A DNA stretch of 64,000 nt from Escherichia phage vB_EcoM_KAW3E185. The position numbers and the translations under genes are program-made. The notes beneath the pieces are model-generated. The model saw only the letters and a program-made list of their open reading frames with translations, was not told the origin of the DNA and made no database searches. Of this stretch, positions 5,769 to 54,083 are shown one piece after another. The stretch is taken from sequence record MK373782.1. One strand, given 5' to 3'. Each line of letters opens with the position of its first letter. Position 1 is the first letter of the stretch.

Positions 5769-6339
5769 ATTCTCTACATTCCATAATAAATTGCTCAAGG
5801 ATTAAATTGTTAGTGAAATTAGGACTAACAACCATGGTTTCATAAAGCGCATCAATAGCACTTAAAGCATCAACTCTTTTAAGCAAAGGCTTGCCTTCAT
5901 ACATAGTTTCAGAATCGACGATTAACGTAAAGTAATATTTTTTATTATCGACTAGAACTTCTGTATCGATATAAAACATATTAGACCTCAGAAGCTTATC
6001 TCTAAAACCATAATAATCTTCTGAACGTTCACTGATATATTCCCATTCAGTGTTTAAACAACAAACAGACCATGTAGGAGCAACGAAATCAGTGAATCTA
6101 ATATCATGGTCTGCAACTAGTTTAGCAATAGCTCCGATATCATGAATCATAATACCTGGGGCTAATAAAGATTTTCTGCTATGGCTAGCCGTTTTCTCAG
6201 TAGTCTCATAAGAAGACGACCAGTACCATTTACGTCCGGTTGCAACATATCGTAATGAATCAACTAAAGACGTAGGTGGATTTACCTTATCTCGGAACTC
6301 TTCGAACATTGAGTCAATATCATTATTTTGGTTTCGCAT
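5737..6339 (-). CDS. Hypothetical 200-aa soluble protein with C-terminal EQFIMECRE motif (family A)
   Basis: ORF track 5737..6360 begins at a TTG; internal ATG MRNQNN has AAAGGAG Shine-Dalgarno. Confidence 0.6.
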   Translation of the reverse strand: MRNQNNDIDSMFEEFRDKVNPPTSLVDSLRYVATGRKWYWSSSYETTEKTASHSRKSLLAPGIMIHDIGAIAKLVADHDIRFTDFVAPTWSVCCLNTEWEYISERSEDYYGFRDKLLRSNMFYIDTEVLVDNKKYYFTLIVDSETMYEGKPLLKRVDALSAIDALYETMVVSPNFTNNLILEQFIMECREYVKANPIHTK

Positions 6340-7918: not shown

Positions 7919-7953
7919 AAACATCTTTATGAAATATTTTTATGCCCTAGATA

Positions 7954-7982
7954 CCAAAAAGCCCCAACCGTAAGGAAGGGGC
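7954..7982 (-). terminator. Intrinsic terminator (copy 1 of a 29-nt repeat)
   Basis: Minus strand GCCCC-TT-CC-UUAC-GG-TT-GGGGC followed by TTTTTGG, directly downstream of 7989..8453. Confidence 0.65.
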
Positions 7983-8453: not shown

Positions 8454-8496
8454 GTTGCTTTTCCTAAGTTAATTAACTTATCTATTTATTATTATG

Positions 8497-8525
8497 CCAA
8501 AAAGCCCCAACCGTAAGGAAGGGGC
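8497..8525 (-). terminator. Intrinsic terminator (copy 2 of the 29-nt repeat)
   Basis: Identical to 7954..7982; downstream (minus) of the non-coding RNA region. Confidence 0.6.
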
Positions 8526-9195: not shown

Positions 9196-9272
<77 letters not shown>

Positions 9273-9275
9273 GAT

Positions 9276-9352
9276 TGGTGACCCAGACCAGATTCGAACT
9301 GGTAACCTTTCCCTTATGAGGGGACTGCTGCTAACCGTTGAGCTACAGGGCC
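9276..9352 (-). tRNA. tRNA with CAU anticodon (Met, or Ile if lysidine-modified)
   Basis: Canonical T-arm ACCAG-TTCGAAT-CTGGT, anticodon loop CTCATAA, encoded CCA; one acceptor mismatch and an imperfect D-stem in my reading. Confidence 0.6.
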
Positions 9353-10242: not shown

Positions 10243-10601
10243 GAATGTTCCACCACTTCAAAGGTATGAGCATCAACAATATGATACCAGTCAAAATTTT
10301 CTTCTGAGTTTTTATAAATTTCGCGAAGAGCTTCAACAGTTTTTCCTGTAGCAACAAGATCATCAATACCACCAAGAGGATAACAGTCATAACCAGCAAA
10401 CAGAAGGAAATTAATAGTTTCTGTAGGTTCTGGATGCAGAACACCGTTATCGTCTACCACTTCAAAGAAAGTGTAAGAAGGAGTACAAGTTTTAATCCAA
10501 GCCCAGGCTTGAGCTGCTGAATCAAATGGTCCGCGTATCAAACGACAATCAGGGTCTTTAGAAGGATTTGCTTCAAAATCTGCATATACATGATATTTCA
10601 T
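10239..10601 (-). CDS. Hypothetical protein (120 aa from internal ATG)
   Basis: ORF track 10239..10619; internal ATG MKYHVYADF has AAGGTGAG Shine-Dalgarno. Confidence 0.55.
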   Translation of the reverse strand: MKYHVYADFEANPSKDPDCRLIRGPFDSAAQAWAWIKTCTPSYTFFEVVDDNGVLHPEPTETINFLLFAGYDCYPLGGIDDLVATGKTVEALREIYKNSEENFDWYHIVDAHTFEVVEHS

Positions 10602-11477: not shown

Positions 11478-11548
11478 ATTTCCTTGAGGTTGTTTATTTG
11501 ATAGGATGATAGTAACACACCATCATCCTTATGTAAACTGTTTTGTGA
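11478..11548 (-). promoter_or_regulatory. Early promoter with stem-loop (PeSL-like)
   Basis: GTTTACA, 17 bp, TACTAT; spacer inverted repeat AGGATGAT...ATCATCCT. Confidence 0.55.
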
Positions 11549-11551
11549 AAA

Positions 11552-12237
<686 letters not shown>

Positions 12238-13029: not shown

Positions 13030-13614
13030 TTAACGCAAGGAAGGGTGTCTAGAAATGGATTTAGATTCGACTGCTTGACGTGGTTGTTGAGATACAATGA
13101 CTTCACCATCCTTTTCTATCGTCATGTACGCATAGTGAATAGTTGCTACGCACGTAACGGCAGGGTCAGAGTCTTCGGTGTAACTAAATTCAATTTCACT
13201 CAAATCAGAAATCCATGGTTTATAGAAATTCGCCGTCAAAACTACTTCAGTCTTATTGTTGTTTAAAATGTGCAAAGTAACAAACTCAGGACCATCGGAG
13301 TGGGCCGTATTATGTCCGGTTATATAGTTATTAGTGCTGAGCATCCATTTATACATGTTCATCCAGGACGTCATGTCTTCATCAACTATAAATCGTACAA
13401 CAAAAGGGTCGTATTCAAATGTGGTGCCTGCACGCATTGCACGTCCTAACCCCATCGTGCCTGTCACAGTTTCAACAACAGGAATTCTCACACCTGGCAA
13501 TGGAGCCGTTTGGGCATTGAGCACAAAACCTGAAGTTCGTGTACTATCTGGGATATCCACAACAAAGTTTGTTATATTTGTTTGGTTAAAAATCTGTCTC
13601 GTTGGACGAGTCAT
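13030..13614 (-). CDS. 3: gp3 tail completion / sheath stabiliser (start uncertain)
   Basis: ORF track 13030..13620 (GTG start); position between gene 1 and gene 2 as in T4. Confidence 0.7.
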   Translation of the reverse strand: MTRPTRQIFNQTNITNFVVDIPDSTRTSGFVLNAQTAPLPGVRIPVVETVTGTMGLGRAMRAGTTFEYDPFVVRFIVDEDMTSWMNMYKWMLSTNNYITGHNTAHSDGPEFVTLHILNNNKTEVVLTANFYKPWISDLSEIEFSYTEDSDPAVTCVATIHYAYMTIEKDGEVIVSQQPRQAVESKSISRHPSLR

Positions 13615-13628
13615 AAGCACCTCAAAAA

Positions 13629-13665
13629 CGCTTTAATAAAAATGCAGTATAATGGTTTTAGGTCT
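13629..13665 (+). promoter_or_regulatory. MotA-type middle-promoter-like element on the plus strand
   Basis: cGCTTTA box, 12 bp, TATAAT; shares an 18-nt identity GTATAATGGTTTTAGGTC with the uvsY promoter region. Confidence 0.45.
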
Positions 13666-13716
13666 CTTCCATTAATCCGGTTCAACAGAATATCAGAAGA
13701 ACGGAAGAGAATAGAA

Positions 13717-14538
13717 TTAAGATTTCCAAACAGTATTCGCAGAGAAACGTTTTCCTTTTGACATAAACTGCTGAGTAGGTAACATGATTATGTTAGCCCA
13801 GTCTTTAGGAGCTATTTCTGTTATTGTTCCTCTAATGTGGCCTGGCAGGTATGCTTTAATCATTTTGTCAGCACCTTGAAATCCTTTCACCTTGCTCCAG
13901 TCTATCTTCAACTTTGTGTTATTAGTAATAGTAGTTGTGCTAGCATATTGCTTCAGCAATTCTTCAAGAAACTGTTGTCGTGCTTTAGGTGGGATATAGT
14001 GCAAGTTTAACCCGTACATCAAATTATGTTTACCTAATCCTAAATAAATAATCAAAGGATATCGGTCCCAGTATGGCAGAGTATCTTTATGTTTAGCATC
14101 ATACACGTAAGTATAAATTTTGCCTGGCGTAGGCTTGACTACTTTATGACCTTTTACACTTTTTTTAATTGTTTCAACAAACCACTTAGATGATTTGTTG
14201 TTTACTGCTGCGCCTTCATTTCTAATCTTTTCTCGTATTGAACTGCGAAACGAGTTTATCATCAGAAGTTGACGTTCTTGCTTATTGAGTTTATTTTTAG
14301 GTTTAGATTCAAGCGTTTCAATTTTCTGTGCAGTCTTAATAGATGATGCATATCTAGACATTGCAGATGTAAACGACGAGTATTTTATTCCTTTTGATTC
14401 TGCAAATGCTTTTGCAGTGATTCCTTTCTCTTTAGCTTTCTTGTATTCTAATCCTATCTCAATCCATTTTCTTTCATTCATAGACTGAGCAATCTTAGGG
14501 GCTTGTACGCCTTCAGATATAATTTGGAATATGCTCAT
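13717..14538 (-). CDS. 2: gp2 DNA end protector
   Basis: 273 aa (T4 gp2 is 274); gene order. Confidence 0.8.
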
Positions 14539-14540
14539 AA

Positions 14541-14990
14541 TTACCCCTTGTATCCGAGTTTTCTAAGACCATCTTCGGTTAGAACTCGAAATTTTATATT
14601 TCTCTTTTCAGCAACAGCTGAGGCAGCTTTCCATTTGTCGCAGTTCACAGACCAGGTATATATTTCATTCATATAACGTTTCTTAGCCGCAGTTGTAAGA
14701 TTCACCGGTTTAATAGGTGGCTGAGTTTCTTTCTTTGGTTTTATTTCTACAAAGAACTCTTGACCTGATGCATCTTTCATCCATATGTCCATGTAGTATC
14801 GACGTTTCTTGCCTTCAGCATTACAAAAATATGGAATTACTGCTGTTTCACTACCCCATGCAATAATTTCTGGATTTTTATCCAACCATTCGAAAAAGAA
14901 TTTTTCCCAGTTTGAACGATACGTTATTTTGGTATGGTCTCCACGGTATTTTTTTAAATTTTTTGGGACCCATTTACCAGAGTAGGCCAT
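14541..14990 (-). CDS. 4: gp4 head completion protein
   Basis: 149 aa from internal ATG with AGGAGG Shine-Dalgarno (ORF track 14541..15134); T4 gp4 is 150 aa. Confidence 0.8.
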
Positions 14991-15001
14991 GTTGTCCTCC
15001 T

Positions 15002-15024
15002 TATAAATAGTATTATTATTTATA
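15002..15024. promoter_or_regulatory. Divergent late promoters (TATAAATA on plus for gene 53, on minus for gene 4)
   Basis: TTATAAATAG at ~15002 and TATTTATA at ~15017 in the 61-bp gap between divergent genes. Confidence 0.65.
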
Positions 15025-47078: not shown

Positions 47079-47143
47079 ACCGGATGTTTAATTTGAATAG
47101 ATAGAACCTAGATTCATTATACCATCAAAAATTGTAAAGCATA

Positions 47144-52311: not shown

Positions 52312-52536
52312 TTATACAACTCTCATATGCATATCAATGCCCATATCTTTAGAATAAAAATATTCATCAAGATATCCGGCAAATTTTCCTTTAATATAAA
52401 GGACGTCTTCACCACACGGGTGGTCTGCCAGGATACGAATATCCTGACGACGTAGACGATACTTTTCCATTAAGAATTTAATTTCAGTTTCAAATTCTTC
52501 GTCATTATTAAAGGCATCTTCAATTGAATAACGCAT
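52312..52536 (-). CDS. uvsY.-1-like protein
   Basis: 74 aa ORF immediately downstream of uvsY. Confidence 0.65.
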   Translation of the reverse strand: MRYSIEDAFNNDEEFETEIKFLMEKYRLRRQDIRILADHPCGEDVLYIKGKFAGYLDEYFYSKDMGIDMHMRVV

Positions 52537-52949
52537 TATTGCCCCGCTTCAAATTCTCGCATATCCTGGATATGTTTAAGTGCAAAACTACGAGACTTAA
52601 CTGCGTCAAGTGCACCACTACAGAACTCAAGTAAAATTCCCCAGTATTGTAAAGTAGTCTCTATTTTAAGCACATCTTTATCTGCAGCCAGGACAGTTTT
52701 CATTTCAGATTTCTCGTATCGGTCCATACTGAATTCATCACCGTCACCTCGTCCCGAGTAGTAGTCTAATCTTGCTTTTAGAGCAGTTTTCTTCTGAGTC
52801 TCTATACGCAACATTTCTTTACGAATAAATGAGTGCTTACGTAGCCATTTGCTGTATAACTTAACATTATTCGCCGTCTCATATTGCAACTTTGACATAT
52901 CAATAGCTAAGTCTGCGTCTAACTCTTCCTGTAAATCTTCCAGCTTCAT
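52536..52949 (-). CDS. uvsY: UvsY recombination mediator
   Basis: 137 aa; LQYETANNV...RLDYYSGRGDGDEFSMDRYEKSEMKTVL nearly identical to T4 UvsY. Confidence 0.97.
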   Translation of the reverse strand: MKLEDLQEELDADLAIDMSKLQYETANNVKLYSKWLRKHSFIRKEMLRIETQKKTALKARLDYYSGRGDGDEFSMDRYEKSEMKTVLAADKDVLKIETTLQYWGILLEFCSGALDAVKSRSFALKHIQDMREFEAGQ

Positions 52950-52999
52950 AATATTCTCTCATTAACTAATAATCTCCCGGCTGTATCGGAAGGACCTAA

Positions 53000-53030
53000 A
53001 ACCATTATACATAGGTCGCCTTGAAGCATT
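53000..53030 (-). promoter_or_regulatory. MotA-dependent middle promoter of uvsY (oriF-like region in T4)
   Basis: Minus strand aaTGCTTCA, 12 bp, TATAAT. Confidence 0.7.
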
Positions 53031-54071: not shown

Positions 54072-54083
54072 TATTTATAAATA
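54072..54083. promoter_or_regulatory. Palindromic bidirectional late promoter TATTTATAAATA (genes 26 and 51)
   Basis: Contains TATAAATA on both strands in the 47-bp divergent gap. Confidence 0.7.

Follow-up and report, generated by a model that had tools for sequence, protein, structure and literature searches.

The spacer between genes 3 and 2 of Escherichia phage vB_EcoM_KAW3E185 holds a plus-strand element whose reading as a phage middle promoter is strongly supported by its sequence and that of its relatives, and its core appears to evolve in concert with that of the uvsY promoter. We consider it probable that this element (P3/2) is a functional MotA/AsiA-dependent promoter, i.e., one working by sigma appropriation, that has no gene of its own and would instead give rise to a non-coding antisense RNA; MotA dependence, the start site, and the extent and effect of the transcript are what we infer for it. 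The analysis covered a stretch of 64,000 nt of record MK373782.1 (the window), which is from a Mosigvirus (RB69 group). A 701-nt query from it (13300-14000) is 100% identical to NicPhage, 99.9% to JK42 and 99.6% to APCEc01, and gp3 shares 99% identity with that of RB69. MotA and AsiA are annotated in JK42; both genes lie outside the present window.

The features of the spacer and its surroundings are collected in Table 1. The earlier note had described the site as a further copy of the uvsY middle-promoter core, preceded at the proper distance by a Mot box, and this description holds: GCTTTA (13630-13635, plus strand) lies 12 nt before TATAAT. The site has what is expected of a MotA/AsiA-type promoter, namely a GCTT box at about -30 and a TAnnnT -10 element within 11-13 bp, with no -35 hexamer, and a consensus scan does not list it as a -35/-10 promoter. 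The base before GCTT is C, not T, and the same CGCTTTA variant occurs in the mapped, active T4 promoter PnrdC.7. In T4, PuvsY and PnrdC.7 have mapped starts at 115371 and 53325, respectively, in both cases on the first A of TCT-A-AG, 7 nt after the -10 element, and the predicted start was accordingly placed on the equivalent A13660. The stop codon of gene 2, on the other strand, is 57 nt away, and transcription would thus run convergently from the 3' end of its target. Genes 2 and 4 are both on the minus strand downstream of about 13660, in agreement with the antisense orientation given in the earlier note. The literature warns that some middle promoters with a good consensus match are silent in vivo.

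No late promoter (TATAAATA) was found in the 3/2 spacer or in the uvsY spacer and, since the 3/2 spacer lacks one, gene 3 is read as part of the 4-2-3 late operon. The late promoters of the window include back-to-back pairs, at 15002-15024 and 54072-54083. The operons 4-2-3 and 26-25-uvsY each have a family promoter in the spacer before the third gene, in opposite orientations.

Table 1. Features of the gene 3/2 spacer, its surroundings and related promoters (positions in the window unless another genome is named).
Feature	Position	Strand	Remarks
Gene 3	13030-13614	-	tail gene
MotA box AAACGCTTTA	13626-13635	+	GCTT core 13630-13633; centre ~-30
18-nt core, as in the uvsY promoter	13647-13664	+	-13 to +5
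Sigma-70 -10 hexamer TATAAT	13648-13653	+	12 nt past GCTTTA
Predicted start A13660	13660	+	7th nt after TATAAT
Predicted non-coding transcript	13661-14993	+	antisense to genes 2 and 4; 3' end undefined
Inverted repeat TCTCTTCC (13663-13670) ... GGAAGAGA (13703-13710)	13663-13710		hairpin on either strand
Gene 2	13717-14538	-	DNA-end-protector gene; stop codon 13717-13719
Gene 4	14541 to ~14993	-
Late promoter TATAAATA	15002-15009	+
Late promoter TATAAATA	15017-15024	-	heads 4-2-3 late operon
Genes 53 and 5	beyond gene 4	+
Third family member, upstream of rnlB	47109-47140	-	GCTTTA-N13-TATAAT-GAATCTAGGTTC; Mot-type site 47140-47116
uvsY CDS	52536-52949	-
PuvsY	52993-53027	-	Mot box GCTTCA 53027-53022; TATAAT 53009-53004; predicted start A52997
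Late promoter TATAAATA	54072-54079	-	heads 26-25-uvsY operon
T4 srd/modA orphan promoter (AF158101)	11862-11902	+
T4 TCTAAGTCC family copy, srd/modA spacer	11883-11902	+
T4 TCTAAGTCC family copy, 3/2 spacer	75986-76005	+
T4 TCTAAGTCC family copy, PuvsY	115366-115385	-
JK42 (MK962756) srd/modA orphan promoter	~11536-11575	+

The 18-mer GTATAATGGTTTTAGGTC that had been reported at uvsY (minus strand) and in the 3/2 spacer (plus strand) matches exactly at both loci, at 52993-53010 and 13647-13664, and RB69 has the same 18-mer at both. These are its only copies in the 64-kb window, where no further one was found even with up to three mismatches, and none of 100 shuffles contained two matches. Beyond the 18-mer both copies continue with a 1-nt indel and then CTTCC; without gaps, 27 of 34 nt agree (79%), and the pair heads the list of inverted repeats in the window. 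When the window was simulated 100 times with a second-order Markov model, some repeated 18-mer arose in 20 of the runs, and the length of the repeat is therefore weak evidence when taken alone. It is the promoter context of both copies, not their length, that excludes chance: the pattern GCTT[TC]A-N11-13-TATAAT occurs at only three sites on the two strands (128 kb), and the 18-mer copies lie in register within two of them. In the window the Mot box of PuvsY, TAATGCTTCA, has the same 12-nt spacing to TATAAT, and 44 nt separate the core from the uvsY start codon downstream. This PuvsY is a paralogue of the 3/2 promoter and the orthologue of the T4 oriF promoter; the literature identifies PuvsY with the oriF promoter, as the earlier note had stated.

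The window contains other repeats. A cassette of about 65 nt is present in eight copies (60-100% identical; at 2627, 2896, 4191, 7290, 10807, 11135, 11490 and 44620), which look like minus-strand early promoters with conserved flanks and resemble the PeSL type. Two GC-rich hairpins, AAAAAGCCCCAACCGTAAGGAAGGGGC, at 7951-7982 and 8494-8525 (97% identical, 543 nt apart), are probably duplicated intrinsic terminators. Another exactly repeated 18-mer, AATAAAGGAGTTAACATG, at 6337 and 54051 (minus strand), comprises a ribosome site and start codon of unrelated genes. Two adjacent tRNA genes (9199-9272 and 9279-9352, minus strand) are the only Rfam matches in the window, and the 3/2 element thus corresponds to no known RNA family in that search.

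We compared the spacer across the Tevenvirinae. T4 could be aligned through it at 73% identity, and on the same strand the T4 spacer carries a perfect middle-promoter consensus, TAATGCTTTA-N13-TATAAT-GGGTCTAAGTCCCTTCC. Conservation in related phages, on which the earlier note had made its proposal depend, is borne out by the presence of the promoter in at least six genera including T4 (Tequatro-, Mosig-, Moon-, Karam-, Gapriver- and Dhakavirus), and it occurs in further IMG/VR lineages. Although the rest of the spacer is divergent (mean column identity 56%), GCTT and TATAATG are retained, as is the distance from the box to the -10 element: GCTT is invariant and stands 14-15 nt from TATAAT in the six genera, and TATAAT is invariant in all aligned lineages. 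The promoter is absent from Jiaodavirus, in which genes 2 and 3 overlap, and from Krischvirus, Tulanevirus, Bragavirus and several other contigs. Since it is lacking in Jiaodavirus, which uses MotA, and in several other lineages, the promoter is dispensable. In the corresponding spacer of Proteus phage Pm5461 (L101 186-391) no Mot-type promoter was found; this spacer contains an AT-rich direct duplication whose units start about 110 nt apart.

The 3/2 promoter belongs to a small dispersed family. The T4 genome has just three copies of the 9-mer TCTAAGTCC, all of them 2 nt past GGTATAATG of a Mot-type promoter, and PnrdC.7 is a near copy of these promoters. When 60 T4 middle promoters were compared pairwise from -6 to +16, the highest identities were within this family (18, 16 and 14 of 22 positions, against a mean of 8.05). 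The family has four copies in T4 and five in a reconstructed Mosigvirus genome: in the srd/modA spacer (plus strand), the nrdC region (minus), the 3/2 spacer (plus), the rnlB promoter (minus) and PuvsY (minus). The rnlB copy, whose downstream motif GAATCTAGGTTC is related to that of the pair, is the third of the perfect Mot-type sites in the window. At rnlB, which encodes RNA ligase 2, T4 has no such spacer, and the mapped T4 PrnlB has a different sequence. The srd/modA copy is a second orphan promoter, antisense into modA/modB. Its start lies 11-27 nt from the modA 3' end on the opposite strand, the same layout as at the 3/2 element, and it is kept in T4, Mosigvirus, Jiaodavirus KPV15 and another distant lineage. 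In Dhakavirus a further family copy lies between genes 18 and 19 (L009 ~2830-2900; L038 ~10300-10400) on the strand opposite to the late genes, and shares CTGGGATAATAGATTA with the 3/2 spacer of its own phage; with a ribosome site and ATG after it, this copy resembles a promoter-leader cassette that has been transplanted.

Within this family, P3/2 and PuvsY are linked in a particular way, in that the bases after TATAAT differ among genera and agree within genomes. The P3/2 and PuvsY cores read GGGTCTAAGTCC and GAATCTAAGTCC in T4, respectively, whereas a single sequence stands at both loci in Mosigvirus (GGTTTTAGGTC), Karamvirus (GGTTTTGAGTTC), Gaprivervirus (GGTTCTAGACC) and Dhakavirus (AGTG-TATAAT-GGTCCTA). 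Exact runs through the -10 element extend for 20 nt in Karamvirus, 18 in Mosigvirus and 17 each in Dhakavirus and Gaprivervirus. Over eight lineages the within-genome runs are 11, 10, 9, 20, 17, 8, 18 and 17 nt (cross-lineage mean, 9.7), a sum reached by 52 of 40320 label permutations; the observed identity in the 12 nt after the -10 element is reached by 820 of 40320 permutations for the eight lineages, and the observed identity among the six genera by 4 of 720. The core co-variation is absent in Moonvirus and two related lineages, and the Moonvirus copies share TCAATCAATAACA farther downstream. No pair-specific states were found in the other family members of Mosig- and Dhakavirus.

Lineage-specific identical cores of 17-20 nt in four genera indicate, as far as sequence comparison goes, that the 3/2 and uvsY cores evolve in concert. 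Convergence on one optimal promoter was considered and rejected: T4, Mosig-, Dhaka- and Gaprivervirus share the E. coli RNA polymerase, and different pair-specific cores with the same polymerase make convergence unlikely. The simplest cause would be short-tract gene conversion among dispersed cassettes, by which the 3/2 core (-13 to about +12), as a paralogue of the uvsY core, would be kept alike in each lineage; alternatively, a shared sequence-specific partner may be responsible. The pair also offers a clean natural case of concerted evolution, between regulatory cores of 20 bp that are 39 kb from each other in a genome prone to recombination.

Downstream of the promoter, no plus-strand ORF is conserved by position or start in the six genera, and a small plus-strand protein was rejected as the product, since the ORFs differ in frame, start and position. 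No intrinsic terminator was detected within about 700 nt downstream, where terminator-like sites do not exceed the shuffle expectation, and the predicted RNA is consequently one without a defined length. The proposed course of events is as follows. In the middle period, host RNA polymerase with AsiA-remodelled sigma-70, together with MotA bound to the box, would open the -10 region, initiate at about A13660 and read along the plus strand, entering gene 2 directly at its 3' end and then gene 4. The product would be an untranslated RNA, fully complementary to the transcript of the 4-2-3 late operon. Acting in cis, convergent transcription and antisense pairing would silence genes 2 and 4 and stop leftward read-through, until MotA-dependent promoters are shut off in the late period.

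Silencing of genes 2 and 4 in cis seems to us the most likely role. It is favoured by the position of the 3/2 element and its srd/modA sibling, precisely at the 3' ends of the opposed genes, by the nature of these genes, since gene 2 and modA/modB are harmful if expressed at the wrong time, and by the timing, in that MotA promoters would switch off just as the late operon must be read.

The inverted repeat of the spacer (Table 1) ends 6 nt from the gene 2 stop codon. Folded as plus-strand RNA it gives -13.7 kcal/mol (z -1.85), and the T4 equivalent -11.9 kcal/mol (z -2.8); on the minus strand the RNA has an 11-bp stem. As judged by comparing the arms by eye (an RNAalifold consensus was not used because MAFFT misaligned the hairpins), CTTCC/GGAAG is constant and the inner pairs change in a compensatory manner, from ATTC/GAAT in T4 to GGT/ACC in Moonvirus and GGA/TCC in Karamvirus. 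The arrangement is different in Dhaka-like and Gapriver phages, where the inverted repeat brackets -10 to +30, again with compensatory change. Since its 5' arm there lies upstream of the plus-strand start, the stem-loop is primarily a feature of the minus-strand late mRNA, to which the hairpin probably belongs. The record of phage SA79RD annotates it as a terminator on the minus strand, and gene 3 must be read through it. A 5' hairpin common to all family members was not found; this one is specific to the 3/2 spacer.

The alternative with the most to be said for it, and one that we still think unlikely, is that the 3/2 element is a second R-loop origin of the oriF/oriG type. The MotA-dependent transcript would then stay hybridised downstream and prime a rightward leading strand into the late-gene block, and the element may be an unrecognised middle-mode component of the oriE region. 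Several facts point this way. Both proven R-loop origins of T4 are middle promoters, PuvsY being the paralogue of the 3/2 element and P34i an orphan middle promoter lying antisense inside late gene 34. In T4 the orthologous promoter, with its start at about 76000, is separated from the annotated oriE (79355) by 3.3 kb and from the strand switch at genes 4/53 by 1.4 kb, and its srd/modA sibling (T4 11.9 kb) is 3.5-5 kb from oriA. In Moon-, Dhaka- and Gaprivervirus, the sequence downstream of P3/2 again contains segments of the oriF leader (CAATAAC-type, A/C-rich). A review of T4 origins knows of no middle-mode promoter near oriE, so the 3/2 promoter would have been overlooked there; the review literature finds no motif common to the origins.

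Against an origin stands the distance of oriE and oriA, which are several kilobases away. The 3/2 leader forms a stable hairpin, whereas the T4 oriF (uvsY) leader is essentially unstructured (-3.6 kcal/mol). Origins of this type have an A+T-rich DNA unwinding element some 50 bp downstream of the promoter. The AT/purine content of +1 to +60 does not set oriF/oriG apart from other middle promoters, and by this measure T4 P3/2 (68% AT) ranks 34th of 60; as the proven origins are not composition outliers, this comparison is uninformative about origins. No feature of composition or structure was found that distinguishes the 3/2 element from ordinary middle promoters. To our knowledge, classical plasmid screens recovered only oriF and oriG, which we counted against a 3/2 origin; toxicity of gene 2 and modA could have biased such screens. 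In an extended form, which we regard as unlikely, the 3/2 and srd/modA promoters would both be MotA-dependent oriF-type R-loop origins and supply the missing middle-mode parts of oriE and oriA. If so, the 39-kb late-gene block would have convergently firing origins at its two ends, the 3/2 element and oriF, and their lineage-specific identity would be a trace that origin-associated recombination between the two has left.

It is quite unlikely, in our judgement, that the element is a promoter-like relic, kept either by conversion from PuvsY and the family or by constraints on the minus-strand late mRNA, namely the hairpin after gene 2 and the leader of gene 3. Such a relic would fit with the hairpin, which in Dhaka-like phages clearly belongs to the minus strand and for which a terminator annotation exists, with conversion tracts of 17-20 nt and with an element that several lineages can do without. 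However, the Mot box lies outside the shared tract, and the 12-15 nt between box and -10 element are unrelated between the copies, yet wherever the element is present the distance of GCTT is correct; conversion alone is therefore insufficient. On the minus strand, moreover, the conserved bases match no known or shared signal and no late promoter. A minus-strand signal (a gene 3 late promoter or a partner occluding the ribosome-binding site) was rejected as the main cause of conservation, there being no TATAAATA in the spacer, and a late-promoter role for the reverse-complemented Mot box was likewise rejected, as no late-promoter-like motif is conserved across the genera.

A very improbable reading is that the two copies are kept complementary and not identical. 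The 4-2-3 and 26-25-uvsY late transcripts, which contain the segment in opposite senses, could then form a trans duplex of 18+5 nt directly before the ribosome sites of gene 3 and uvsY. Late promoters do head both operons while the spacers have none of their own, and base-pair co-variation would yield pair-specific derived states such as those seen in four genera. On the other hand, the two T4 block differences (GG vs AA) give A.C mismatches and not wobble pairs, Moon-like phages would pair poorly, and other family members share the motif without a complementary partner. Finally, the idea that the 18-mer pair is a chance repeat in an AT-rich genome, for all that one simulation in five yields some such repeat, is almost certainly wrong and is refuted by the comparative data, since the 3/2-uvsY pairing recurs in other genera with different sequences.

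Part of this had been anticipated. Nolan et al. 2006 (Additional file 4) list Pm:79256(+) among 32 HMM-predicted RB69 middle promoters and, as this coordinate falls between the end of RB69 gene 3 (79250) and the start of gene 2 (79353), the entry is the same site as the 3/2 promoter, with identical sequence in a sister phage. It is an HMM entry in a coordinate list, silent on gene orientation, kinship with PuvsY, the family and conservation. The 58 mapped T4 middle promoters of Hinton 2010, which include P1 (75393), P57A, Pdda.1, PnrdC.7, PuvsY and P34i, contain no plus-strand promoter near 76000 or 11897; T4 GenBank records have no promoter features at these two sites, nor does the original T4 gene 2/3 record have any. 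A T4 dRNA-seq data set (GEO GSE255091) reports 150 TSS, of which 22 are antisense. A literature search with 3/2 sequence strings gave no match. Thus, the site was already known as a coordinate-list prediction for RB69, and its orphan antisense nature, the family, the srd/modA sibling and the concerted evolution with the oriF promoter are new with respect to the literature searched.

For T4, these results add two conserved orphan promoters, at about 76.0 kb and about 11.9 kb, with a core in common with the oriF promoter. For the gene 3/2 copy, at 76.0 kb, this extends to co-evolution with that promoter across genera. They bear on the firing of the less-understood T4 origins and on a timed antisense hold-back of toxic or premature genes (gene 2, modA/modB). 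We know of no regulatory RNA characterised in T4.

Among known systems, the closest is T4 PuvsY itself (oriF, ori(uvsY)), which is of the same class, has the same geometry from -10 element to start and co-varies with P3/2 across genera, the segment from -13 to +5 being identical in the present phage. However, PuvsY drives uvsY and its T4 leader is an unstructured unwinding element, whereas the copy in the 3/2 spacer points at late genes, drives no gene and has a hairpin in its leader; of this pair, origin activity is shown only for T4 PuvsY. T4 P34i (oriG) is, like the 3/2 element, an orphan MotA-type promoter antisense to late genes, and in the list of mapped T4 middle promoters the oriG promoter is the only one that faces against its neighbours. 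P34i differs in lying inside a coding sequence, has only weak similarity downstream (GGTCCCAGAGAGTTCC), and has a demonstrated role in replication.

In layout, the 3/2 element resembles lambda OOP, whose promoter is also located at the 3' end of its target on the opposite strand and whose RNA overlaps the end of the target mRNA. OOP RNA, which was once proposed as a replication primer, is 77 nt long and has its own terminator, whereas none is detectable for the 3/2 RNA.

The PeSL/PmSL cassettes of T4-type phages are dispersed, near-identical units of promoter and stem-loop that recombine mutually, and Mot-box cassettes (PmSL) have been noted in vibriophage nt-1 (PMC2839356, PMC4122927). As in the 3/2 family, there are several dispersed near-identical copies per genome. 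In PeSLs, however, the stem-loop lies upstream of the promoter, and the cassettes are found in hyperplastic regions by ORFans and point with the genes, whereas the 3/2 element lies between core genes and points against them, with its stem-loop downstream on its own strand.
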